A stretch of 64,000 bases of DNA from Escherichia phage FL20. The number at the start of each line of letters is the position of its first letter. Positions within the stretch are counted from its first letter, which is position 1. Below, in pieces: positions 1 through 12,705 of the stretch. The notes under the pieces are model-generated. The model saw nothing but the letters and a program-made list of their open reading frames with translations. It ran no database searches and was not told the origin of the DNA. The DNA lies in the sequence record PP400781; one strand, given 5' to 3'. Made by a program: the position numbers and the translations under genes.

Positions 1-411
1 TTCGAGTTCCATCATGATGGTACTTTCTATTCTCCGGGTAATGGTAACTTTAACGATGTTTATATTCGTTCTGATGACCGTCTTAAGATTAATAAAGAAG
101 AGTTAGAAAACGGAGCACTTGAAAAAGTATGCCGTCTGAAAGTTTATACTTACGATAAAGTTAAGTCTATTAAAGATCGTAGTGTGATTAAACGTGAAGC
201 TGGTATTATTGCTCAGGATCTTGAAAAAGAATTGCCGGAAGCTGTATCGAAAGTTGAAGTTGATGGATCTGACGTACTGACAATTTCTAACTCGGCAGTG
301 AATGCTCTTTTAATTAAGGCTATTCAGGAAATGAGTGAAGAAATTAAAGAATTGAAAACTCCTTTCTTTACTAAAATTGCTCGCAAAATTAGTAAATATT
401 TTAAATTCTAA
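1..411 (+). CDS. 37: Long tail fibre distal subunit gp37, C-terminal fragment (5' end outside window)
   Basis: Frame 1 is open from nt 1 to TAA at 409-411. Translation (FEFHHDGTFYSPGNG...SDDRLKINKEELENGALEKV...GIIAQDLEKELPEAV) resembles the C-terminal intramolecular chaperone domain of T-even fibre proteins; lies directly upstream of gp38. Confidence 0.75.
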   Translation, partial: FEFHHDGTFYSPGNGNFNDVYIRSDDRLKINKEELENGALEKVCRLKVYTYDKVKSIKDRSVIKREAGIIAQDLEKELPEAVSKVEVDGSDVLTISNSAVNALLIKAIQEMSEEIKELKTPFFTKIARKISKYFKF

Positions 412-448
412 CAACAAGGGGGCAACGCCCCCCTTTGGAGTATAAATT

Positions 449-1228
449 ATGGCAGTAGTTGGTGTTCCTGGTTGGATTGGAAGTTCAGCCGCAAATGAAA
501 CAGGGCAACGATGGATGAGTCAAGCGGCTGGTCAATTAAGATTGGGTGTTCCTTGCTGGATGAGTCAATTTGCAGGTCGCTCGCGAGAAATTATTCATAC
601 ACTTGGTGCAGACCATAACTTCAATGGTCAGTGGTTCCGTGATAGATGCTTTGAAGCAGGTAGTACACCTATAGTGTTTAATATCACTGGAGATTTAGTA
701 TCATATTCTAAAGATGTTCCTTTATTCTTTATGTACGGAGATACACCGAATGAATATGTTCAGTTGAATATACACGGCGTAACGATGTATGGACGTGGCG
801 GTAATGGCGGTAGCAATGGTCCTGGATCAGCCGGGGGGCATTGTATTCAAAATGATATTGGTGGGAGACTAAGAATTAATAATGGAGGTGCTATCGCTGG
901 CGGCGGTGGCGGTGGCGGTGGCGGTAACAGGGGTCGACTAGTATTTGGTGGTGGCGGTGGTCGCCCATTCGGTGCTGGTGGGTCTTCCTCGAATATGGGT
1001 TCTGGTGCAACCGCTGGCACTATTTACGCTCCGGGTCAAGGATCTGTTGGTTCGGGGTCTCTTAGTGCATATACAGGCGGTGCGGGCGGTAACGTTGGTG
1101 CTGCTGGAGGAAGATGTAATACTCACGGTAACGGTACAGAATATAACGGCGGAGCTGCTGGTTATGCTGTTATAGGGTCTGCTCCAACGTGGCAAAATCG
1201 CGGAGCTATTTACGGACCGGCTGTTTAG
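449..1228 (+). CDS. 38: Tail fibre adhesin gp38, T2/T6 type with glycine-rich motifs
   Basis: 259 aa; conserved N-terminus ([13 protein letters not shown]...[53 protein letters not shown]) then poly-Gly blocks separating short variable segments, as in T2-type gp38; position after gp37. Confidence 0.85.
895..930 (+). repeat. GGC/GGT codon microsatellite encoding a poly-glycine run in gp38
   Basis: Sequence gctggcggcggtggcggtggcggtggcggtaac read directly; encodes GGGGGGGGG. Confidence 0.7.
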
Positions 1229-1291
1229 ACGCAATTATAAAAAGAATTAAGGAAACTCCCACGGAAGGGAACTACTAAGGAGAAAACGGCT

Positions 1292-1531
1292 ATGGTCTAT
1301 AATATCGTCATTGGTGCTTTGTCTAATTTCGGAATGAAACTATTGTCAAAGTTAATTAGTGAAAAGATGCTCACTAAAATTTTCTTCTATTGCGCTCGTC
1401 GTCTTGCGGCTTATACCAACACGCCAATTGATGATCGTTTTGTGGAAGAACTTTATAAGGAGTTTAATAAAGATCAGTCAGAAGATAGCAACGAGCAAAA
1501 TAAAAATAGTGATAGTCAAGTACCTAAATAA
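1292..1531 (+). CDS. Hypothetical small protein between 38 and t
   Basis: 79-aa ORF with AAGGAG RBS 7 nt upstream of ATG; acidic C-terminus; no recognised homolog. Confidence 0.4.
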   Translation: MVYNIVIGALSNFGMKLLSKLISEKMLTKIFFYCARRLAAYTNTPIDDRFVEELYKEFNKDQSEDSNEQNKNSDSQVPK

Positions 1532-1564
1532 GAGTACACTGTCATAGTTATCTTAGGGCATTAT

Positions 1565-2221
1565 ATGCAAGTTTCTGAAAAAGGGAAAGACTTTTCTATC
1601 TCAAATGTCCTGCGCGCTATTTTCACAACTAAAAGCACGGAGTTGCTCGTACTTCGTGTTTTTGCTGCCGTCGTGTTGTCCATATTAGCATTTGTCGTTT
1701 ATAGTAAAAACGAGTTATTTGCCTTGTATAAAGAGACTCGTTATGAGACTTATGCTCACGTTCTCCAGGTAGAGAAAGACCGCAATTTTGATAATGCAGC
1801 ACAGGAGCAGTTACAGATAGTTCATGTGTCGGCTGATGCCGATTTTTCTGCTGTTTTTAGTTTTCGTCCGAAAAACCTAAACTATTTTGTTGATTTGGTG
1901 GCATATGAAGGAAAGCTACCGCATACAATCGATGAAAAAAATTTAGGCGGATTCCCTATCAATAAAACGAGTGAAGAATATCGTAGGCATCTTTTAGGTA
2001 AATCCTATTTTACCGATAAAGATTTCCAGTATATTCCATCAAGAGAAAAGAAATTAGAGAGTATCGATATAGGGTTTATGTATTCTTGTCCTATATTCAA
2101 TCTCGATAATGTCTATTCTGGTAGTATCTCCATTGCATGGAAGAATAAACCGGATATTGACATTGAGAATTTAGATACTCTTTGCAATCAATCTGCCAGA
2201 ATCCTCGGAAGGATTAGATAA
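1565..2221 (+). CDS. t: Holin t (lysis inhibition-sensitive holin)
   Basis: 218 aa, same length as T4 T; conserved blocks (YKETRYETY, LEQLQIVHVSADADFSAVFSFRPKNLNYFVDLVAYEGKLP, MYSCPIFNLDNVYSG, ARILGR); single N-terminal TM segment. Confidence 0.9.
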   Translation: MQVSEKGKDFSISNVLRAIFTTKSTELLVLRVFAAVVLSILAFVVYSKNELFALYKETRYETYAHVLQVEKDRNFDNAAQEQLQIVHVSADADFSAVFSFRPKNLNYFVDLVAYEGKLPHTIDEKNLGGFPINKTSEEYRRHLLGKSYFTDKDFQYIPSREKKLESIDIGFMYSCPIFNLDNVYSGSISIAWKNKPDIDIENLDTLCNQSARILGRIR

Positions 2222-2225
2222 CTTA

Positions 2226-2262
2226 AAGGGGAAGCCTTTCGGCCTCCCCCTTCTTTTTATTG
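2226..2262 (+). terminator. Rho-independent terminator after t
   Basis: GC-rich hairpin ggggaagcc-tttc-ggcctcccc (one mismatch) followed by cttcttttta T-run. Confidence 0.6.
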
Positions 2263-2505
2263 GCGCATAGAAGCCCCTGAATCACATTTTGACGCTGTAT
2301 GATGAAAACATGTAGCGTACCAGTCATCGGCTTGTTTGTCTTCGTCAGAAAACGCGTAATTTCGTTGTATGCCGTTTTCTACTTTGACCAGTGCAATAGC
2401 TGTTTCTGGAAGATCAATCAATCGGACAAAATCACCATCTTCCCACTCTACACGAGCAATATCATAGCCCATCTCAAAGTATACAATCGCTTGTTCTAAT
2501 TTCAT
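2257..2505 (-). CDS. Hypothetical protein (position of asiA in T4 but no recognisable similarity)
   Basis: 82-aa ORF, first minus-strand gene after t; does not resemble the remembered AsiA sequence. Confidence 0.4.
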   Translation of the reverse strand: MKLEQAIVYFEMGYDIARVEWEDGDFVRLIDLPETAIALVKVENGIQRNYAFSDEDKQADDWYATCFHHTASKCDSGASMRQ

Positions 2506-2831
2506 TCTGGAAACTTCCCGTAAACATTCTCTGCCAGCTTACGTGCATCTTTTACAATATCTTTCATGTAATGACTATAATTTTTAGCTAGATCAATGAT
2601 ACAATCAACAAAGAAGTAATAGCGTCGCAGTGCTACCAGCTCAACATCTTCAAGATGACCATTTTCTCCAATCGCTGAAATATGTTTAAATTCCTTTCGG
2701 ATCGCGTCCATCGCTACATTAACTTCTTTTATAATATCTTTCGTATTATATGCACCTCGACTAATCAAAATTTTGGTTAGGTCTTCTGCTTTTTCGTGAA
2801 AGTTGTCAATTTCAAACTCGATCATAATCAC
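2502..2831 (-). CDS. Hypothetical protein, paralog of 2940..3272
   Basis: 109 aa; C-terminal ...KLAENVYGKFPE matches ...RIMTENIFGKF of the neighbouring ORF. Confidence 0.5.
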   Translation of the reverse strand: MIMIEFEIDNFHEKAEDLTKILISRGAYNTKDIIKEVNVAMDAIRKEFKHISAIGENGHLEDVELVALRRYYFFVDCIIDLAKNYSHYMKDIVKDARKLAENVYGKFPE

Positions 2832-2939
2832 CTCTCATAGTTTCACGCTGTTGTTTCAACATTTTTTCGTGGTTTGCTAATTCTATACCTTGTAATAGCA
2901 TAACCAGTGCAATTTTCAATGATTCATCATCTTTCATAA

Positions 2940-3272
2940 TCAAAATTTACCGAAAATATTCTCTGTCATAATTCTTGCTTCGTCGATTATTTTCGTCATG
3001 TTCATGGTGTAGTTATGATCATTTAGTGCCTTAATGACAACGAGCAAGGAATCTAAAAACACTCGATACCGTGTATATTCTACGCTATTTGTGAATACCG
3101 ATGTTTTCTCTACTTTATCGATCAGATAGCCTAAAGCCGATAGCGCCTCGTTTACTTCCCTTGTTACTTTATCGGCGCTAAACAACACCGGATAAAGACG
3201 CGGTGTGATTAACCGCGCTGCCTCTTTCAATTCGGTCGCTTTCCATGATTCATATTTGTCATAATTAAACAT
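2940..3272 (-). CDS. Hypothetical protein, paralog of 2502..2831
   Basis: 110 aa; shared C-terminal motif with the adjacent ORF. Confidence 0.5.
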   Translation of the reverse strand: MFNYDKYESWKATELKEAARLITPRLYPVLFSADKVTREVNEALSALGYLIDKVEKTSVFTNSVEYTRYRVFLDSLLVVIKALNDHNYTMNMTKIIDEARIMTENIFGKF

Positions 3273-3284
3273 TGTATAATGTCC

Positions 3285-3617
3285 TTACAGATGAAAACCT
3301 GTTACAATCACCGCATCGATCATACCGCTAGGAATAAACGGTTCACCCTCTTTTATTTCAACTTTGAATTGATGCCATTTCGCTAATACTTCTTCCGGTA
3401 CACCCAGCGATTCGGCGTCTGCTTTGGTGTCATCTGTCACCCATTCCGGCTTCATGAGAGCATAGTTTACATAGTCCATTTCTGGTGTCATGTCATCAAT
3501 GTTAATATATTTGCAGTTGACGCGTTTCAGAATTTCAAATTCTTTATTATCAACCTGTACCATGTATAATTCAGTAGTTTCTGGAATCAGTTCCCACACA
3601 ATCAGTACATTTTTCAT
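3285..3617 (-). CDS. Hypothetical protein
   Basis: 110-aa ORF tightly packed in the minus-strand array. Confidence 0.45.
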   Translation of the reverse strand: MKNVLIVWELIPETTELYMVQVDNKEFEILKRVNCKYINIDDMTPEMDYVNYALMKPEWVTDDTKADAESLGVPEEVLAKWHQFKVEIKEGEPFIPSGMIDAVIVTGFHL

Positions 3618-3625
3618 AGTTCACC

Positions 3626-3994
3626 TCACTTAACAAAGATTTTCTTTAATGCTTTCAGGATCGTTGCTTCCGGCGCTTCTTCCGGTGGAGGAAGCAATTC
3701 TACCACTTCCTCTTCCAACTCGATATAGTCTACCAGATATTCTACATAGAATGCAAGTGCTTCCATGAAATTAGATGCTACATCCGATTCACCACACGCG
3801 CCTACATGCATTGTATAAACATCACTGCGATCAAGTTTGTGAATACTCCCCAGATAGTTCCGGTTATACCAGACTTCCCACACTTTCAGCTTTCCGGTTT
3901 TGGTTGATGTTTTATAATCGGTTTCGTAATGATGCAATTGACGTTGCAAATCATTGATAATAACACATTTTTCGTAATTGTTTTGAATTTCCAT
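3626..3994 (-). CDS. Hypothetical protein
   Basis: 122-aa ORF; acidic C-terminal tail (EEEVVELLPPPEEAPE). Confidence 0.45.
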   Translation of the reverse strand: MEIQNNYEKCVIINDLQRQLHHYETDYKTSTKTGKLKVWEVWYNRNYLGSIHKLDRSDVYTMHVGACGESDVASNFMEALAFYVEYLVDYIELEEEVVELLPPPEEAPEATILKALKKIFVK

Positions 3995-4004
3995 GATGTA
4001 ATCC

Positions 4005-4196
4005 TCACTTATCGTTAAGAAGTTCTAAAACTTTCTGTCGTACTTTGTCAATATTAGTTGATTCAAAAACTGTACGGTATCCCCAGCTTTGACCGTATGA
4101 TCGCGAGCAATCCCCATATCCCCATTGTTCAACCTGATAGTATTCAAGGAATGGGTGCTGCCGAACTATGATACCATCGCGATTAAAAATTACCAT
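4005..4196 (-). CDS. Hypothetical small protein
   Basis: 63-aa ORF in array. Confidence 0.35.
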   Translation of the reverse strand: MVIFNRDGIIVRQHPFLEYYQVEQWGYGDCSRSYGQSWGYRTVFESTNIDKVRQKVLELLNDK

Positions 4197-4219
4197 AATA
4201 TAATCCTCACGTCAACAAC

Positions 4220-4507
4220 TTATTTTCTGTTGTGGTCACGATATGTTTTAAAATATCCCTCGTACCACGGTAAAACATCTGGATTTTTACCACTATACAG
4301 ACCTTTAACCATCATGTCAATAAGGCCATCTGGTGTTTGATAGTTTCCAGCTTTTATAAGCTCTCTGATTAAAATCTCTCTGTATATGTCTTTAGGATCT
4401 TCGTAATCAACTTGTATTGTGGTTGTGGTCTCATTCAATTTGGTTTCTGGAGTATCTCGCATCGCCTTCCACCAATCTTTTGTAATCTTCATGTTATTGA
4501 ATTGCAT
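4220..4507 (-). CDS. Hypothetical protein
   Basis: 95-aa ORF in array. Confidence 0.4.
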   Translation of the reverse strand: MQFNNMKITKDWWKAMRDTPETKLNETTTTIQVDYEDPKDIYREILIRELIKAGNYQTPDGLIDMMVKGLYSGKNPDVLPWYEGYFKTYRDHNRK

Positions 4508-4518
4508 AATTTAACCTC

Positions 4519-5277
4519 TTACTTGCAAACGTATTGATCTACATCAATTGCGCCACCGAATGTAGGATGACGTTTTTCAAATCGAATAGTTCCGTCGTTT
4601 GGTTCGAAAACGGAGTATTCATATAGATCTTTCTTGCCAACATTCTTATAAAACCCGCCTTTCGTCATAACGGTTTCTTGTACGTTTGCTTTGTGTACGT
4701 TGTATTCGTCAATGTATACAAAATCAACCATCTTCCCATTTTTAATGGTTACTTTAAGATCTCCTGGTTGATTTCCATATTTGGCATACAGTGGCGCTTC
4801 TTTAATTTTTGTGGAAATTCCATCTTTCATACTCCACTCATAACGAACGGTGCATTGATAGGTAAAAGTTTCGACCTTCGGTTCTTCCACCACTTTTTCT
4901 TCCTGTTTCGGTTGTTCTTCTTCAACCTTCACAGAAGTCTCTGAATCGCTTTCTGACGCGGTTTCTTCTTTAGGTAATACATTCATCAAATTTTGGATTT
5001 GAGCGTTGTATACAGCCTCCAGTGGCTGGATCTGCCCGATATTGATCATTGTATCACGAACAGTTTTATTCCAGTTGAGTTGCTCTTGTTTAAGAGACGG
5101 ATCAATCTTAACAGCCTTAACATATACTTCATGAAGTTTCGAATCCAGTGCGGAGATTGACTCATTAGCACAAATAAACTTCTCTGATTTGGTAGTGGCT
5201 TTAGCGCAATCAAAGGACGCAGCATTAGCACCGAAAGCAGTAGCGGAAAGAACGATAGCAGCGATAATGTTTTTCAT
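4519..5277 (-). CDS. Secreted protein with LprI/DUF1311-like N-terminal domain (lysozyme-inhibitor-like)
   Basis: 252 aa; signal peptide MKNIIAAIVLSATAFGANA; then C-x10-C ... LDSKLHEVY ... QLNWNK pattern typical of DUF1311; Glu/Lys-rich linker; own promoter at about 5312-5340. Confidence 0.55.
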   Translation of the reverse strand: MKNIIAAIVLSATAFGANAASFDCAKATTKSEKFICANESISALDSKLHEVYVKAVKIDPSLKQEQLNWNKTVRDTMINIGQIQPLEAVYNAQIQNLMNVLPKEETASESDSETSVKVEEEQPKQEEKVVEEPKVETFTYQCTVRYEWSMKDGISTKIKEAPLYAKYGNQPGDLKVTIKNGKMVDFVYIDEYNVHKANVQETVMTKGGFYKNVGKKDLYEYSVFEPNDGTIRFEKRHPTFGGAIDVDQYVCK

Positions 5278-5311
5278 AATATATTCCTCAATGTTTTGTC
5301 TTGATGGGAGT

Positions 5312-5340
5312 ATCTTACTACTCCCTTAATCCGGTGTCAA
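5312..5340 (-). promoter_or_regulatory. Sigma70-type early promoter with dyad spacer
   Basis: Minus strand reads TTGACA-ccggattaagggagtag-TAAGAT; inverted repeat gggagta/tactccc spans the spacer and -10. Confidence 0.55.
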
Positions 5341-5346
5341 CTATTT

Positions 5347-5502
5347 TTAAATTTCTTCTACAGTAAAGTCTTCAATGTTATTGTGCTCGGAGAACGTTGC
5401 CAGACCAGCATTCCATGCATCATCCTCAGAGAAGAATACACCGTAACGTTCATATCCTTTAGCGCCTTCAAATTTAACCATTAATTTGTGAGTATGTTTC
5501 AT
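5347..5502 (-). CDS. Hypothetical small protein (51 aa)
   Basis: ATG at 5500-5502 preceded by AAGGAGAATCAAA leader; the longer track ORF 5347..5565 would run through its own promoter. Confidence 0.4.
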   Translation of the reverse strand: MKHTHKLMVKFEGAKGYERYGVFFSEDDAWNAGLATFSEHNNIEDFTVEEI

Positions 5503-5533
5503 TTTGATTCTCCTTCGTTGTCTTGATGAGTTC

Positions 5534-5562
5534 ATTGTAGGGGATCGGCGATCCCCTGTCAA
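5534..5562 (-). promoter_or_regulatory. Sigma70-type early promoter with GATC-containing palindromic spacer
   Basis: TTGACA-ggggatcgccgatcccc-TACAAT on minus strand. Confidence 0.55.
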
Positions 5563-5572
5563 CAACTATTTT

Positions 5573-5785
5573 TTAATTTTTACCCGCTCGTGCATTAATA
5601 AGCATTTTCTGAATAGCCATGATCTGGCTTACTGCTTCTTCTTTACGTTCTTGCGTGATAACGTGACCAGATTCCGCAAACTCTCCAGCAACTTCTTCTA
5701 CGATCTCGCGAACTTGAGAACGTCCAAAGATGCGGTTTCCTTCGTAGCTCATAAATTCTGTTACTACTTGCTCGATAGATTTCAT
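5573..5785 (-). CDS. Hypothetical small protein (70 aa)
   Basis: ATG at 5783-5785 with AGGAGAATCAC RBS; track ORF extends upstream through the promoter. Confidence 0.45.
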   Translation of the reverse strand: MKSIEQVVTEFMSYEGNRIFGRSQVREIVEEVAGEFAESGHVITQERKEEAVSQIMAIQKMLINARAGKN

Positions 5786-5814
5786 GTGATTCTCCTTTCG
5801 TTTGGTATGGGAGT

Positions 5815-5843
5815 ATAATACTACTCCCATGCCTTTACGTCAA
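5815..5843 (-). promoter_or_regulatory. Sigma70-type early promoter with dyad spacer
   Basis: TTGACG-17-TATTAT; gggagta/tactccc inverted repeat over the -10. Confidence 0.5.
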
Positions 5844-5846
5844 CAA

Positions 5847-6008
5847 CTATTTTAAATTATTTTCGACCTTCACCCATTCCGCGTATTCTTGCGCGGCTAC
5901 TTTCGGATTTAGTCCGTCTTCGTACATTGCATCAAGTAATTCTTTGTCGGTGGGCTTATACCCTAGATAAGCCTCCACCTGATTTTTCCAAATTTTATAC
6001 CAGTTCAT
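5847..6008 (-). CDS. Hypothetical small protein (53 aa)
   Basis: Internal ATG at 6006-6008 just after the stop of the upstream ORF. Confidence 0.35.
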   Translation of the reverse strand: MNWYKIWKNQVEAYLGYKPTDKELLDAMYEDGLNPKVAAQEYAEWVKVENNLK

Positions 6009-6012
6009 ATTA

Positions 6013-6216
6013 TCACCAGTCAAGAGCGCGTGTCTCTGCGTCTTCCCATGCTTGGTCCATAACAGCCTTGAAAACATATTCTAAAGTATCATCTTTAGAG
6101 AATCCGAAGACCTTAGACGGGATATCTTCAATTGCTACTCCAGCAACTTCTGCATTACGCGCTTGGCAATAATGCAACTCTAAGTTATCGAGATAGCGAC
6201 CGCCTAATTTCTCCAT
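6013..6216 (-). CDS. Hypothetical small protein
   Basis: 67-aa ORF; promoter TTGACT-17-CATAAT at about 6318-6344 upstream. Confidence 0.4.
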   Translation of the reverse strand: MEKLGGRYLDNLELHYCQARNAEVAGVAIEDIPSKVFGFSKDDTLEYVFKAVMDQAWEDAETRALDW

Positions 6217-6356
6217 ATCATCCCAGCATTCCAGTAACCTACTTTATTTGCAATTGCTAACACTTTGCTGTTTTCGTTGCACATCTTTGATTCTCCTTTT
6301 GTTTGGTGTGTGTGTATTATGCAATGTTGGATTCTGTAAGTCAACAACTTTTTAAA

Positions 6357-6384
6357 ATAAAAAAGCCGACCACACGGATCGGCT
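6357..6384 (-). terminator. Rho-independent terminator
   Basis: Minus strand: agccgatccgtgtggtcggct hairpin followed by tttttatttt. Confidence 0.6.
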
Positions 6385-6394
6385 TAATAATCAG

Positions 6395-6790
6395 TTACTT
6401 ACTAAATTTCTTTTTGGCTTCGTCTACCGCATGAGATGCCAGTACCGCAGCCGCATGTGCACTTTTATCTGTGTTGCAGAGAACGCCCAGATAAACATCA
6501 CGCCAAAGTTTAATCATCTCGTAGATCATATCAATATCATTTTCTTGTTTGTTGGCGATGCTATTCGTCGTTATCTGGTAAGGTAACGGCTTGATCTGTA
6601 CTGGTTCCGCCATCGGGCTAATCGGTTTCGGATCAGTCATAATAGGTGCTGTTGTGGGTGGTGTTTTCCATACACCATTATTCCACGGTTTAATCGTTGT
6701 GTCGTAAAGTTTATAAGGATTTTTGTCTGGGTCAACCATCCATGCATGATGAGTACCCAAACCATTTGAAGTGATGCGTCGTTCAGTCAT
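6395..6790 (-). CDS. Hypothetical protein
   Basis: 131-aa ORF; Pro/Thr-rich middle. Confidence 0.45.
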   Translation of the reverse strand: MTERRITSNGLGTHHAWMVDPDKNPYKLYDTTIKPWNNGVWKTPPTTAPIMTDPKPISPMAEPVQIKPLPYQITTNSIANKQENDIDMIYEMIKLWRDVYLGVLCNTDKSAHAAAVLASHAVDEAKKKFSK

Positions 6791-6793
6791 AAT

Positions 6794-6997
6794 TTATTTC
6801 CTCTCTGAAAATTCTTTCATCAAGCTGTCGATCTTTGCTCTGTGTTCTGGTGTGTTTGTCATCTCTGCTAATTTGCTCAGAGATTCACTGGTGATCCGGT
6901 TGGATTCTTCCAGTGTTTCAACGACAATTGGCACAATCTTTTTATTGTTGTACAGAAATGCAATATAACCGCCTTCTGGATATTCTTTCATAATCAA
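6794..6997 (-). CDS. Hypothetical small protein
   Basis: 67-aa ORF; start overlaps the gp52 stop. Confidence 0.4.
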   Translation of the reverse strand: MIMKEYPEGGYIAFLYNNKKIVPIVVETLEESNRITSESLSKLAEMTNTPEHRAKIDSLMKEFSERK

Positions 6998-8340
6998 CCC
7001 TTCTTAAGTTCTTTAAGATCTTTCTTATATTCCTTCATTGCGGTCGTCTTTGTCCAATACTCATATTCACTATGATGTTTATCGGCATCTTTGACCAGTC
7101 GATCATACTCTTCTTGAGTAACGCTATACAATGGCATAGAAACTAGCTTATCGGCGTATGGACGCAGTTTTTCATGTCCATTGATGGATTGCATTACCTC
7201 GGCCTTTTTCTTTCCCTGTAGCTCGATTTCGCCCTTAATTACGCGATCGATAAATTCGGCTTTAGCCATTGCATAATTGTATGCTTCCAGCGTTTCCGCT
7301 TGCATCAATTCAATGCGTTTATCGACATACACTAATCGGATTTCGACGAATCGACGGATCAGATCGCTCGCTTTCTCGAATACTTCTACTAAACCACGTT
7401 CATTAACCACTACGATATTCTGGGCTACTAACTGCGTTAGTTTAAAATCCTTCATGATTTGCTCATGTCGAGCGGATTCATCTTCGCTTTTGAAATAATC
7501 GCGTTTCAGTGTTACTTCAAATCTGAATCCATCCTTAGAGCAACGGTCATTATATGAGACAATCAGATCTTTTTCTTCCAGTGCATCCAGTACCGCTACA
7601 TATTCTTCACGGTCGAACTTATAAGGAACTTCTGATATTGTCAGTTTAGTCTTGCCGTTTAGTTCATATGTACCCTCAAGAATCACACCATCGCGATCAT
7701 CTCGCGGGATAACTTTACCCGTGAATTTCGGGAATTGAACATTAGGTTCTTTATCCAGTTTTCCGGCAAGTGCTAGCTCTGTGCATTCAATGAGGCTTTC
7801 CAGTGAATGCGGTAAAATGTCAGTTTTATACCCTGAAGCAATACCACTAATACCATTAGCCAATACCATTGGCACAACTGGCAAGTAGAACGCTGGCGGG
7901 ATGTGTTCCAGATCTTCGTGCTTAGGTGCGCAATTCATATCTTTATAGATTTTAAAGAAGTTTTCATGCACACGAGCAAAGATATAACGTGCCGCTCCTG
8001 CTTTCTGGACTAAACGAGATCCGAAGTTACCTTGACCGTCAAGCAGTGGAGTATTATTGCTCCATGTATTCGCCATGAGTGATCCGGCTTCTACGGCATT
8101 AGTTTCGCCGTGGTGATACCCCAATTCAGCAACACCAGATCCAATATCTGCCATCTTACGGAATTTCTTACGGTCGCCTTTACTCTTTTGCAAAGCACAT
8201 TCCATAACAAAGCGTTGCACTGGTTTAAGCCCATCCACTAATTGAGGAATCCCGCGTTCCTCGGCAGAATAGATCGCATATTCCTTAGCTTCATTATGTA
8301 CAATGCTTTCAAGGCTGCGGTAAGTAACTGATTTATTCAT
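6994..8340 (-). CDS. 52: DNA topoisomerase II medium subunit gp52 (GyrA-like)
   Basis: GLKPVQRF, DGQGNFGS, ARYIFAR, YLPVVP motifs collinear with T4 gp52; ATG at 8338-8340 with GAGGTGA RBS (track start 8355 is GTG). Confidence 0.9.
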   Translation of the reverse strand: MNKSVTYRSLESIVHNEAKEYAIYSAEERGIPQLVDGLKPVQRFVMECALQKSKGDRKKFRKMADIGSGVAELGYHHGETNAVEAGSLMANTWSNNTPLLDGQGNFGSRLVQKAGAARYIFARVHENFFKIYKDMNCAPKHEDLEHIPPAFYLPVVPMVLANGISGIASGYKTDILPHSLESLIECTELALAGKLDKEPNVQFPKFTGKVIPRDDRDGVILEGTYELNGKTKLTISEVPYKFDREEYVAVLDALEEKDLIVSYNDRCSKDGFRFEVTLKRDYFKSEDESARHEQIMKDFKLTQLVAQNIVVVNERGLVEVFEKASDLIRRFVEIRLVYVDKRIELMQAETLEAYNYAMAKAEFIDRVIKGEIELQGKKKAEVMQSINGHEKLRPYADKLVSMPLYSVTQEEYDRLVKDADKHHSEYEYWTKTTAMKEYKKDLKELKKG

Positions 8341-8347
8341 CTTCACC

Positions 8348-8710
8348 TCATACACGCTTACAAATCACATTCTTTACTTTATCAGATTTATCAGCCCAAT
8401 CCAATAGCCATTTTAACGGAAGGATTGACACAATAAACGGGGCAGCAATCAAAGCAAACATGATACACCTGATAATCAGGAAAACGCAAGTGACAAAACT
8501 AGCGATAGTGATCCCGACAAAACAAAATACCATAGAAAACAGAGTAATGATATAGAAAGGCCAGAATACCCACTCCCGCATCTTAACGCCTTTGTATTCT
8601 CTGAATTGCTTAAAATCTACAAACAACTCTCGGATAGACGCGTACAGGACCGAAAAATCATCTTTCATTGCTCTGAATGAGCAATCTTCTATTTTAGAAT
8701 GACCTAGCAT
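8348..8710 (-). CDS. Hypothetical membrane protein
   Basis: 120-aa ORF with two or three hydrophobic helices (WVFWPFYIITLFSMVFCFVGITIASFV...). Confidence 0.45.
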   Translation of the reverse strand: MLGHSKIEDCSFRAMKDDFSVLYASIRELFVDFKQFREYKGVKMREWVFWPFYIITLFSMVFCFVGITIASFVTCVFLIIRCIMFALIAAPFIVSILPLKWLLDWADKSDKVKNVICKRV

Positions 8711-8712
8711 TA

Positions 8713-9006
8713 TTAACCGCCTTTAACCATTGATACAGGAATTGTTTTCTGATTTGTGTATAAGTGGCCTACTTCAATTTTTTCTTGAATCACCACGACG
8801 TTACAATATCCACTGTCTTTAAGTTTTCTGATAATGACTCGCTTTTGTTCGTCGGTGATAGGATTGACTGTTCTCACCAATTCACCGCAAATAATAGCAC
8901 CATCTTTACAATTACCAGTAACTTTCATGCTACGACCGTGAACAACAACCACGTCACCGTAAATCACATTTTCGTCGTCGTATTTGGTAATAACCGTGAC
9001 CGTCAT
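8713..9006 (-). CDS. Hypothetical protein
   Basis: 97-aa ORF. Confidence 0.4.
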   Translation of the reverse strand: MTVTVITKYDDENVIYGDVVVVHGRSMKVTGNCKDGAIICGELVRTVNPITDEQKRVIIRKLKDSGYCNVVVIQEKIEVGHLYTNQKTIPVSMVKGG

Positions 9007-9051
9007 AATGTATTCCCTCTAAGAAAGGCCGCGCAAAGCGGCCTATGTTGA

Positions 9052-9384
9052 TTATTGTTCTACAGTATAACCGTTGTTTTCAAGCCATGCAATAACAATC
9101 TTTTCGCCAATTTCATCGAGCATTTCATCAGCGCCATATTCTTTAATGAAAGTCGATGGATCATTATTGCTTACTACGTGCTGGATCACAACATGTTCAG
9201 GAATTGCGTCTAGTAGTTCGCTATGATCATACTCATTAACGATATCTTCAACACTAACATTATTAACCAAATCAACATCATCCATAGTCACAGTAACGCG
9301 ACCGGACGGACGCAATGAATATTGGCTACTTTCAACTTCAACATGTGCACTTTCGCAAGTAACTTTCATATCAACCATAATCAA
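9052..9384 (-). CDS. Hypothetical acidic protein
   Basis: 110 aa, strongly Asp/Glu-rich. Confidence 0.45.
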   Translation of the reverse strand: MIMVDMKVTCESAHVEVESSQYSLRPSGRVTVTMDDVDLVNNVSVEDIVNEYDHSELLDAIPEHVVIQHVVSNNDPSTFIKEYGADEMLDEIGEKIVIAWLENNGYTVEQ

Positions 9385-9392
9385 TTCCTCTG

Positions 9393-10385
9393 TTAGTAAT
9401 GGCTAAAACCTTCGGTCACATCTTCAACCACATAGTAACGATGACAGCGCATTTTGGCATTTGCATAATCTTTCGGGATACTTACAACGTGACGCGGATC
9501 AACTTTGCATTTAATGATTCGGCCTCGTCCACCGCCATAGTGCGGAATATAGTGTTTCGCTGCAACGTGGAGGCCATTAGAGCAAGTGCGATCATCATCT
9601 GGGTCCACGTCTTTACGCTTCATTTTAACCGTGCGACCTGGGCTATTATCAAACGTATGCGTAAAGAAATCTTTATAATCAACATCAACACGTTTCCATG
9701 CATAGAAACAACCATCTTCCACGATCTCAATGTCGTTGTGCTCTAAGAAGTCAAATAGACGATCTACGGCCTTACGGCTAGGGTTTTTCTTGCACTTCTC
9801 AAAGAAGTTAAGATAGTGCGTATATGGCTTATTCTCTTTAATCGACTCCACAACTCGACGAGTCAGATTATTATCAAGAACAATATTATGATAATACACA
9901 ATACCATTTTCGATACGGAAAGCGCCGTGATAATATACTTCAACCGCTTTCTTAATGTCAATCAGCGTAATAGCTTTGATGAAATCATTATGTTTAATCG
10001 CTTCCAGTGCTTCCTTAAAGTTAACATGTGATGGATCAGCAGTATAAACAATGTCACCACATGTAATAGTAATAAACTTAGTTGAGGCTATGGCTACGAT
10101 TTTTGAGGAAGTAGTTACGGGCTTTTTTGCGCGTTCACCGCCTTTTCCTTTACTGGTTTTACGGCGTGCTTTACGTTTTTCTAGTGCCTTGCGACCTTCC
10201 GCTACTGCGTCTTTCTGAATCAGTAATACACGGGAGGCAGTGCGACGAGATACACCAAATGCTGCCGCAAGTGCTTCGCGGGTAGTAAACTTACCTTCGC
10301 CCCACTGTTTAGCCAGTTTGATTTGTTTCGCAGAATCCAGACATTGAACGTTACGGTCAGAGACGGTGATTTTTGCTTTAGTCAT
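9393..10385 (-). CDS. rIIB: rIIB membrane-associated lysis-inhibition protein
   Basis: Collinear with T4 rIIB (SRLFDFL, DGYFYAWK, TFDNSPG, CSRGLHV, VKVHPRDVVSIP, YEVVEDVTE equivalents); ATG at 10383-10385 preferred because the first ATG abuts the RBS. Confidence 0.85.
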   Translation of the reverse strand: MTKAKITVSDRNVQCLDSAKQIKLAKQWGEGKFTTREALAAAFGVSRRTASRVLLIQKDAVAEGRKALEKRKARRKTSKGKGGERAKKPVTTSSKIVAIASTKFITITCGDIVYTADPSHVNFKEALEAIKHNDFIKAITLIDIKKAVEVYYHGAFRIENGIVYYHNIVLDNNLTRRVVESIKENKPYTHYLNFFEKCKKNPSRKAVDRLFDFLEHNDIEIVEDGCFYAWKRVDVDYKDFFTHTFDNSPGRTVKMKRKDVDPDDDRTCSNGLHVAAKHYIPHYGGGRGRIIKCKVDPRHVVSIPKDYANAKMRCHRYYVVEDVTEGFSHY

Positions 10386-10447
10386 AGTATTCATTCCTCT
10401 ATTAGTTGGGCGACTATTGCCGCCCGATTCACATCATTATACCAGAA

Positions 10448-10579
10448 TTATTTTGCTTCGACAACCTTGCGGATTGTGCGGTCTGATACATTATAGATTC
10501 GTGCCAGTTCGCCTTTAGTCAAACCGCGAGCGTATTGTTTACGGATGGTTTCTTTCTGGATGGCGGTCAGTTTAGTCAT
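10448..10579 (-). CDS. Small HTH peptide (43 aa) between rIIA and rIIB
   Basis: Not in the ORF track (under 60 aa). GAGGTGA RBS; translation MTKLTAIQKETIRKQYARGLTKGELARIYNVSDRTIRKVVEAK is a helix-turn-helix resembling the N-terminus of rIIB. Confidence 0.5.
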   Translation of the reverse strand: MTKLTAIQKETIRKQYARGLTKGELARIYNVSDRTIRKVVEAK

Positions 10580-10590
10580 AATATCACCTC

Positions 10591-12705
10591 TTAAAATTTA
10601 ACATTCTTAACCAGTTTCATAAAGTCTTGTGCGCGTTTGTCATTATGCAGAATACGATACCAGTTATCGACAATATCATACAGTAACGGGCTATTCTCTT
10701 TAAACTTCGCACAAACTGCTTTAATTCGTTCGTTTGCTACCGTGAATTTTTCATCACTAATCTTTTTAGTTTCTTCGTCCATAATCCAACGAGTACGAAG
10801 GAGTAACTTGGAAACCTCTTTATTATAATGACGACCGTACAGTCTGTCAATAAATTCTGGAACACAGCGTTCTAGTTCATCGTCATGAAACAACATAGTG
10901 ATCACACCCAGATATTCGCCATACCCCAGATGATTGGTCTTAACCTTCTTAGCCAGACCAGCCAGCTTACCGCGAACAAATTCTAGCGCACATTCCAATT
11001 GTTCGTCAACGAGATATTTTTGTGTCTCGTTTCGAGTAATAATATACTTTGTTACCCCGAAGTAGTCAAGCGCCGTGTGTAATGTATTTTCACTATGGAT
11101 CGATTTACGACTACGGCTTTCGAATGCATCACCTACGCGGAACATGTGCAAGCCTGATAACTCGCGAATCTCTGCCGCTTTCATGTGATGGCTGGTTTTA
11201 TGCCAACTGTCACCAATCTTTTCCATGATATACACGTTAGGCAGCTTAGGAGTCGCTTCACGTTGTGTACGTGTACGCTCGGTCTTCTCCGGTTTAACTG
11301 CTTTAGCACGCAGATCATCGGCCTCAGAAACTTTAATCACGGTCATTTCAGAATCATCATAATACTGTTTGATGTACTCGAAAGTTTCCATATGTTTTTC
11401 GTTGCGCTGACGGAACACCAGTACCTTTTTATTGATGCCGTATTCCTGGACCATACCGTTAAGAGTCAGTGCGCGTAGTTTCGGTTTATCGGTATCATCA
11501 ATAAGACACATAATATCTTCTTTATGCATCCATACAAAATGCGTAATGTTGTATTGACTGCTAACGAAAGCAGGGCGCAATTTACTGATTGTGTGACGAG
11601 TACGATACAGAGTATACACCTGACCTTCTACGTCATTAGGCGAATCTTTACCCGCATTCACAAACTTATTATAGATTGCTACCGGATCATCCCACTGCCC
11701 GGTCTTACCCATCTTGCTAATAATATTGCGTTGAGTCGATGAATACTCGCTCATAAATTGCGCAAGTTTACGCTCTGTTTTAATGTTGGCGATCTTCTCT
11801 TTGACCTTTTCCAACATCATTTCATTGATTTCTGCAATGCGTTTTTCGATGTTCGCTTTAGTCTCAATTGACAAGTGAACTTCTTCACGCGATGGCATCA
11901 GGTCCAGATCACCCAACTCAAAATTAATGTAAATGGTCTGGTGCTGGCGGTTTACAGCTTCTAACCATGTTCCGCGAACATATTCATACGGGATCGGATA
12001 CTGGATCTTACCCATGATTGCATATACTACATAGGAATCGTTATCACGCCCATTACAAACATAATAATTATCAAAGCTAGGGAAATAATTAATTTCGATT
12101 GCATTGATATTAGGTTTGTGTTCCCCAAAATGACGCAGTACAAATTGCGCTTCTCGATGCCATGTCTGAATATCTTTTTCTTTCACCGGAATAGTGATTT
12201 TCAGACCATTGTCTTCATAGGTCGGTTCGTCGAAAATCTGCACCATTTTCGGCATAGAGTTTTGCACAAATGCCGTAAAGCCATAAGCGCGACCATTGTA
12301 ATAGTTTACGATTGTAAAGGTGTCAGTGTAGCTATAAGCAGATTTCGCACCTAAACCAAAAGACCCGATATAGTCATTAGTCTGGTCTTTTGTTGATTCA
12401 AAGTAAACCGTAAACAGTTGTTCTAATTCTTTCTTAGACGGAATACCAGTACCATAATCACGCACAGAAAAATACGGTTCGATTGCAGTCGGTAAATGAA
12501 TATCAAACGGACGATCTAAGGTTCCGGCTTCTTTGTGAGTGTCGGTAGCATTGCACGAATACTCACGGACGCAAGCACGCTCACAATATTGATAAGTGTT
12601 CTTAGAAAGCACCATAAAAGCCTTGCTACTTGCTTTCAGTGAAAAATCAACCGCACCGCTCAGGTCACTGCCAAATACTTCTTCATTATCAATATGCATT
12701 TTCAT
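10591..12705 (-). CDS. rIIA: rIIA protein (GHKL-ATPase-like)
   Basis: 704 aa; N-terminal ATPase-like motifs (GSFGLGAKSAYSY); size and position as T4 rIIA; ATG with GAGGA RBS. Confidence 0.9.
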   Translation of the reverse strand: MKMHIDNEEVFGSDLSGAVDFSLKASSKAFMVLSKNTYQYCERACVREYSCNATDTHKEAGTLDRPFDIHLPTAIEPYFSVRDYGTGIPSKKELEQLFTVYFESTKDQTNDYIGSFGLGAKSAYSYTDTFTIVNYYNGRAYGFTAFVQNSMPKMVQIFDEPTYEDNGLKITIPVKEKDIQTWHREAQFVLRHFGEHKPNINAIEINYFPSFDNYYVCNGRDNDSYVVYAIMGKIQYPIPYEYVRGTWLEAVNRQHQTIYINFELGDLDLMPSREEVHLSIETKANIEKRIAEINEMMLEKVKEKIANIKTERKLAQFMSEYSSTQRNIISKMGKTGQWDDPVAIYNKFVNAGKDSPNDVEGQVYTLYRTRHTISKLRPAFVSSQYNITHFVWMHKEDIMCLIDDTDKPKLRALTLNGMVQEYGINKKVLVFRQRNEKHMETFEYIKQYYDDSEMTVIKVSEADDLRAKAVKPEKTERTRTQREATPKLPNVYIMEKIGDSWHKTSHHMKAAEIRELSGLHMFRVGDAFESRSRKSIHSENTLHTALDYFGVTKYIITRNETQKYLVDEQLECALEFVRGKLAGLAKKVKTNHLGYGEYLGVITMLFHDDELERCVPEFIDRLYGRHYNKEVSKLLLRTRWIMDEETKKISDEKFTVANERIKAVCAKFKENSPLLYDIVDNWYRILHNDKRAQDFMKLVKNVKF

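Follow-up and report, generated by a model that had tools for sequence, protein, structure and literature searches.

The t–52 interval of Escherichia phage FL20 is probably a hyperplastic region of small early genes without asiA, arn or motA

In phage T4 the interval between the holin gene t and the topoisomerase gene 52 holds asiA, asiA.1, arn, arn.1–4, motA and motA.1. By contrast with this arrangement, Nolan et al. 2006 (PMC1524935) searched RB49 in vain for a motA ortholog or for a consensus of middle promoters, as had, according to the citation given there, Desplats et al. 2002. T4-like middle promoters together with a motA ortholog were found only in RB69 and 44RR, and AsiA orthologs were named only for RB69, 44RR, Aeh1 and KVP40 (PMC1524935). 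The hyperplastic regions of RB49 and phi1 carry promoter-early/stem-loop (PeSL) elements that mediate the modular shuffling of ORFans, and the phi1 ORFan 263.1 has been placed in such a region (Arbiol et al. 2010, PMC2839356). Here we analyse the corresponding interval (positions 2257–6997) of Escherichia phage FL20 within a 64,000-nucleotide stretch of sequence record PP400781, referred to as the window. An earlier reading of these letters alone (the original prediction) had described the T4 interval as encoding AsiA, Arn and MotA, which the T4 gene list bears out, had proposed that no ORF here resembles AsiA or MotA, and had anticipated a middle-mode transcription programme unlike that of T4 if both are truly missing.

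We read the FL20 interval, with a probability of about 0.9, as a known hyperplastic region of early genes driven from PeSL cassettes, in a genome that has no asiA, arn or motA and that follows the two-class transcription programme of RB49. A megablast search with window positions 1–9000 returned 400 phage records headed by Krischvirus genomes (FL04, FL15, kvi, KMB43 and RB49; 96–98% identity), and RB49 aligns colinearly with positions 1238–10500 at 97.7% nucleotide identity; these matches identify the window as part of the genome of an RB49-like ‘pseudo-T-even’ coliphage. The t–52 intervals of the Krischvirus members RB49, phi1 and JSE (RB49p255 to p268) have the same gene order and content and the same PeSL-type cassettes as the window, and likewise no asiA, arn or motA. 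With T4, the interval shares its flanks t and 52, a leftward early orientation, a similar density of small genes and arn.4, whereas all other genes differ, and AsiA, MotA, Arn and MotA-box promoters are missing from the window.

The absence of the three T4 factors was consistent across every type of search. No open reading frame (ORF) of the window matched the Pfam families AsiA (PF09010), MotA_activ (PF09114) or MotCF (PF09158) at E ≤ 1, and none matched phrog_1166 (AsiA), phrog_1345 (MotA) or phrog_3151 (Arn), which the T4 controls do match. BLASTP of the window ORFs against nine T4 proteins gave only noise for AsiA, MotA and Arn. We also searched the six-frame translation of the 64-kb window with a hidden Markov model (HMM) built from seven AsiA homologs and, using phmmer, with the T4 proteins; the best E-value for AsiA was 0.2, MotA gave nothing below E 1 and Arn was not found. 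When RB49 was searched in this way (see below), the T4 control locus yielded E-values of 1e-50 for the AsiA HMM, 6e-134 for MotA and 1e-58 for Arn, and T4 AsiA as a control reached 1e-41 to 1e-56 across the profile searches. Profile–profile comparison (hhalign) of single interval ORFs with AsiA, with the N- and C-terminal domains of MotA and with Arn gave probabilities of at most 1.7% in all cases. The proposal that no ORF between t and 52 resembles AsiA or MotA thus holds, and sensitive profile searches, which had been suggested as a means of exposing divergent AsiA, MotA or Arn, found none of them. The missing Arn fits the lack of hydroxymethylcytosine (hmC) synthesis and glucosyltransferase genes in Krischvirus genomes (PMC13390438).

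The two regulators might instead lie elsewhere in the genome. The window represents 64 kb of approximately 164 kb, and gene order varies within the genus: the gene for the gp38 adhesin adjoins gene 37 here and lies at 45.4 kb in RB49. Against this, the six-frame search of the window was empty, and that of the 160.8 kb of RB49 searched as a whole-genome proxy (97.7% identical to the window in their shared part) reached no better than E 0.23 for AsiA, with nothing for MotA at E ≤ 0.5 and no Arn. The RB49 annotation, which contains neither asiA nor motA, and the literature agree on the absence, and MotA boxes are also absent (see below). We therefore regard relocation of asiA or motA, or both, outside the interval as very improbable. 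Other T4 functions directed at RNA polymerase are retained in the RB49 annotation, namely srd, modB, alt, rpbA, 55, a gp33-like co-activator and dsbA; srd, modB, rpbA, 45 and 55 of RB49 map into the window at 98–100% identity.

The promoters tell the same story as the proteins. Sites fitting the MotA-box pattern TGCTTNA-N11-13-TANNNT are about as frequent in the window as chance predicts (3 found against 2.89), whereas the first 50 kb of T4, which are homologous to it, contain 17 against 3.73 expected, a number reached by none of 100 shuffles. A stricter pattern with a TAnAAT −10 element finds 8 sites in T4, of which 7 lie on the strand that is transcribed, but none in the window or in 150 kb of RB49. 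We conclude that the phage lacks middle promoters dependent on MotA. This promoter search had been put forward as a check in the original prediction, and its outcome agrees with absence; from the lack of both AsiA and MotA homologs and MotA-box enrichment it follows that the transcription programme differs from that of T4, as had been anticipated. The conclusion is right and not new, because the absence of motA and middle promoters from RB49 was already published between 2002 and 2006.

What fills the interval is a series of minus-strand ORFs of 41–252 amino acids (aa), and both GC and AT skew are negative along its whole length (Table 1). They had been counted as 14 small ORFs; the filling stands and the count does not, as the program-made list holds 16 minus-strand ORFs and the RB49 RefSeq record has 15 coding sequences from p255 to p268. 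When gene starts are trimmed according to PHROG profile coverage and RB49, these 15 genes are also those of the window. The 16 ORFs thus reduce to 15 genes, the RB49p266 homolog being split by a 1-nt deletion. This deletion lies in a T-run at about position 6229 (GCATTCC here, compared with GCATTTCC in RB49 and in a related sequence, L004, both of which have the gene intact), and the phrog_7287 match of the split homolog is restricted to profile positions 21–86. Either the gene is a genuine pseudogene, or the split stems from a sequencing error in the homopolymer.

The frameshifted p266 homolog, together with the several ORFs shorter than 70 aa, could be taken to mean that many small ORFs do not represent genes and that the interval consists mostly of non-coding or decaying DNA. 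We consider this most unlikely. PHROG families match 15 of the 16 ORFs with E-values from 1e-19 to 1e-155 (the exception is the frameshift fragment at 6204–6347), and most of the ORFs have a ribosome-binding site of the GGAG/GAGG type 5–10 nt upstream; because of these matches and sites, we treat the ORFs as genes and not as chance frames. In addition, the genes are tightly packed or overlapping, the region is conserved at 95–98% identity in dozens of phages, and the GC and AT skews are uniformly those of a minus coding strand. Apart from the arn.4 homolog, the ORFs are restricted to Krischvirus.

Table 1. Features in and around the t–52 interval of the FL20 window (positions are those of the window)
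Feature	Position	Strand	Basis
gp38 adhesin, T2-type	449-1228	+	Pfam and PHROGs
Holin t	1565-2221	+	Pfam Phage_holin_T, E 8e-61
G+C-rich hairpin GGGGAGGCC-GAAA-GGCTTCCCC	2222..2256	.	between convergent t and first minus-strand ORF
Tad2-like/DUF2829 ORF (RB49p255 homolog), 82 aa	2257..2505	-	Pfam PF11195; phrog_1048, E 5e-19
Paralog A (RB49p256 homolog), 107 aa from ATG; ORF 2502-2831	2502..2825	-	phrog_9457, E 8e-57
RB49p256.1 homolog, 41 aa	2812..2937	-	phrog_17009
Paralog B (RB49p257 homolog), 110 aa	2940..3272	-	phrog_9457, E 2e-44
RB49p258 homolog, 110 aa	3285..3617	-	phrog_4658
Arn.4 homolog (RB49p259 homolog), 122 aa	3626..3994	-	phrog_1594, E 9e-26
RB49p260 homolog, 63 aa	4005..4196	-	phrog_6957
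RB49p261 homolog, 95 aa	4220..4507	-	phrog_15915
LprI/DUF1311-like protein with signal peptide (RB49p262 homolog), 252 aa	4519..5277	-	phrog_14799, E 4e-155
PeSL-type cassette, TTGACA-17-TAAGAT, inverted repeat GGGAGTA...TACTCCC spanning -10	5278..5346	-	motif scan
RB49p263 homolog, 51 aa	5347..5502	-	phrog_19699
PeSL-type cassette, GTTGTTGACA-17-TACAAT, hairpin GGGGATCGCCGATCCCC in spacer	5503..5572	-	motif scan
RB49p264 homolog, 70 aa	5573..5785	-	phrog_14966
PeSL-type cassette, TTGACG-17-TATTAT, inverted repeat GGGAGTA...TACTCCC	5786..5846	-	motif scan
RB49p265 homolog, 58 aa	5847..6023	-	phrog_8655
RB49p266 homolog (RB49 protein, 90 aa), split into ORFs of 26 and 67 aa	6013..6284	-	RB49 alignment
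Canonical PeSL: intrinsic-terminator hairpin 6385-6363, then GTTGTTGACT-17-CATAAT promoter 6344-6316	6286..6394	-	motif scan
RB49p267 homolog, 131 aa	6395..6790	-	phrog_15644
RB49p268 homolog, 65 aa	6794..6991	-	phrog_15105
gp52 (topoisomerase gene 52)	6994-8355	-	Pfam DNA_topoisoIV, E 2e-68
rIIB	9393-10394	-	Pfam and PHROGs

Sigma-70-type promoters have the hexamers TTGACA and TATAAT, and late promoters are of the TATAAATA type. Each of the four gaps between genes that exceed 60 bp in the interval contains, on the coding strand, a (GTTG)TTGAC-17-TAnnAT promoter that agrees with the consensus at 10–11 of 12 positions, together with a G/C-rich inverted repeat. We identify them as the PeSL cassettes already described for RB49-type hyperplastic regions: as in PeSLs (PMC2839356; PMC4122927), a near-consensus sigma-70 promoter and an adjacent G/C-rich stem-loop stand upstream of ORFans, a likeness judged on layout. 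Three of the four cassettes depart from the published arrangement in that their hairpin, instead of lying ahead of the promoter, overlaps its spacer or −10 element. In the cassettes upstream of the LprI-like gene and of the RB49p264 homolog, the GGGAGTA...TACTCCC repeat brackets the −10 hexamer; should a hairpin or cruciform form there, this hexamer would lie in its loop.

Relatives differ from the window by insertions and deletions bounded by these cassettes. The ECD7-like viral contig L005 (164.7 kb) lacks positions 5819–6288, the cassette of p265 and p266, with breakpoints (L005 about 4270–4302) in the two flanking cassettes at 5786–5846 and 6286–6394, and in L004 an additional 265 bp are inserted near position 5582, at the cassette 5503–5572. 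Such changes match the published PeSL-mediated shuffling. Both hallmarks of a PeSL hyperplastic region, a promoter with a stem-loop upstream of ORFans and cassette-bounded indels in relatives, were therefore found. A search of viral contigs for related loci based on gp52 returned two near-identical loci only and served for the mapping of indels, not for an estimate of diversity.

In the transcription model that we favour, the interval would be a cluster of about 15 small, early and mostly lineage-restricted genes arranged in several short transcription units. The host sigma-70 RNA polymerase would transcribe them leftward from several strong early promoters, each within a PeSL cassette, and the hairpins would limit read-through from one cassette to the next. 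The programme would have two classes of promoter, the early ones used by the host sigma-70 RNA polymerase and the late ones used with gp55; the late genes would depend on gp55, gp33 and gp45, and a sigma-appropriation step by MotA and AsiA would be missing. Of the T4 arrangement, arn.4 alone would be left in synteny. We infer early promoter firing and the attenuation of read-through by hairpins from the motifs together with experiments on RB49 and phi1 (Arbiol et al. 2010). The hairpin between the convergent t and the first minus-strand ORF is, from this placement, likely to be a bidirectional terminator.

Some observations weigh against this reading. The transcription model for FL20 draws on motifs and on experiments with its relatives RB49 and phi1. 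Promoter-like sites in positions 1200–10600 are not more numerous than in shuffled sequence (28 found, 27.6 expected), and the promoter argument rests on the location of the best sites, not on their number. The window does not cover the full genome, such that absence beyond its 64 kb depends on the RB49 proxy, the scan of which covered all but 3.2 kb in the region of the tail-fibre genes 36/37. Finally, both structure models described below are of low confidence, leaving room for a structural analog of AsiA.

Judged by sequence similarity, arn.4 is the sole gene of the T4 t–52 interval with a homolog in that of the window. Profile and pairwise matches both place the ORF at 3626–3994 in the Arn.4 family: in addition to its phrog_1594 match, it aligns by BLASTP (E 3e-9) with the 110-aa stop-to-stop ORF of T4 that ends as arn.4 (L002:4628-4960), which itself matches phrog_1594 at E 1e-53 over residues 3–110. 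The annotation of RB49p259 likewise names a likeness to Arn.4. The RefSeq model of T4 arn.4 (68 aa) starts 21 residues downstream of the point at which the alignment with T4 begins. Because both this alignment and phrog_1594 extend beyond the 68-aa model, the conserved protein is probably the older 110-aa (12.8 kDa) form, yet this form has no upstream ATG, GTG or TTG.

The two ORFs at 2502–2831 and 2940–3272, which had been proposed to be paralogs, are indeed related (26% identity across 87 aa, E 1.4e-6) and belong to the same family, phrog_9457. This family, predicted to be helical, is a true orphan: a HMMER scan of 1.84 billion representative sequences recovered four clusters at 50% identity, one of them spurious (a 2,562-aa repetitive protein). 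Its copy number varies, as L005 has a single member (L005 6809–7141) in place of paralog A, the p256.1 homolog and paralog B. In both L005 and L004, about 208 bp stand against 654 bp of the window, and only the C-terminal part of the single family member is common with paralog A. This pattern suggests duplication or recombination within the family.

Duplicated, predicted to be all-helical and of AsiA-like size, the paralog family is also one candidate for a divergent or non-homologous functional analog of AsiA or MotA concealed among the orphan ORFs, which would give FL20 a middle-like mode built from different parts. Pfam and PHROGs assign most of the 15 ORFs no function, and an NCBIfam search of the interval added no annotation; moreover, Aeh1 and KVP40 illustrate that T4-type phages mix and match their factors (PMC1524935). 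A word-indexed search for homologs reached close relatives only (paralog B, 24; Tad2-like ORF, 2; AsiA, 10). From a 14-sequence alignment, AlphaFold2 models paralog B as four helices with a predicted local distance difference test score (pLDDT) of 58; this model and that of the Tad2-like ORF (pLDDT 59) are too poor to settle fold similarity. The AsiA fold consists of six short helices, to which the four long helices predicted for the paralog do not correspond. A profile search of paralog B against the PDB gave no match, AsiA included, and Foldseek gave a best E-value of 3.1, with no AsiA, among the 50 matches listed of 83. The comparison of the family with AsiA by hhalign returned a probability of 0.2%, and the values of at most 1.7% for the single ORFs also speak against a hidden analog. 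A single copy in L005 argues against an essential regulator, and RB49, for which a promoter class outside the sigma-70 type and the late type is not known, was reported, in Desplats et al. 2002 as cited in PMC1524935, to have two promoter classes only. On balance we think a hidden analog improbable. There is a similarly slim chance that a Krischvirus-restricted ORFan acts as a non-homologous modulator of the sigma-70 RNA polymerase and partly replaces AsiA in host shut-off; candidates would be the duplicated helical family at 2502–3272 and the ORFs adjoining gene 52. The two-class programme, with neither factor, remains our preferred reading.

The place next to t that asiA holds in T4 is occupied here by the ORF at 2257–2505, which recurs with at least 95% identity in 58 records of Krischvirus. 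It scores above the threshold for PF11195 (27.9 bits, gathering score 25; E 3.4e-6; profile positions 1–71 of 73) and thus carries a domain like that of Tad2 (Thoeris anti-defence 2, DUF2829), which sequesters the signalling molecule gcADPR (glycocyclic ADP-ribose; Yirmiya et al., bioRxiv 10.1101/2023.05.01.538930). Its size is similar (82 aa compared with 89 aa for SPO1 Tad2), gcADPR binding is only putative, and phmmer against PDB chains detected no pairwise similarity to solved structures. The AlphaFold2 model, built from three sequences, had no Foldseek match at E ≤ 0.001 and no Tad2 among the 50 listed; for the two models together, Foldseek against the PDB gave nothing better than E = 0.8. 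The literature searched contained no link between Tad2 and Krischvirus or RB49. An alternative assignment of this ORF to the C-terminal domain of MotA, raised by a BLASTP E-value of 0.034 in the nine-protein database, was rejected, given an hhalign probability of 0.6% and the Pfam assignment to DUF2829.

The longest ORF of the interval, at 4519–5277, begins with a Sec-type signal peptide read from the sequence (MKNIIAAIVLSATAFGANA). Directly after it, residues 24–76 show a weak match to PF07007 (21.2 bits, gathering score 22). LprI/DUF1311 is a lysozyme-inhibitor-like domain, and we speculate that the protein could act as a periplasmic lysozyme inhibitor akin to T4 Spackle. A sequence search against the PDB gave no match. 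In L004 the C-terminal half of this ORF is swapped for divergent sequence. Neither sp (spackle) nor imm is present in the RB49 annotation.

On the other side of t, the gp38 adhesin gene lies directly upstream and adjoins gene 37; its glycine-rich region forms a GC peak of 0.52. RB49 has no gene at this position and carries its own gp38-like gene, RB49p079 (68% identical), elsewhere, and no second gp38 copy occurs in the window. This and the intact p266 of RB49 distinguish the two phages around the interval.

The FL20 locus raises no new question about transcription control. It confirms a textbook contrast: MotA/AsiA sigma appropriation is a feature of the T-even and 44RR branches, not one of the core functions of the T4 superfamily, and RB49-type phages use early and late promoters only. 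For annotation, its value lies in describing a hyperplastic region punctuated by PeSLs in which arn.4 appears as the sole T4-conserved gene. The candidate anti-Thoeris (Tad2-like) gene and the secreted LprI-like protein are candidates for host-takeover or anti-defence functions.

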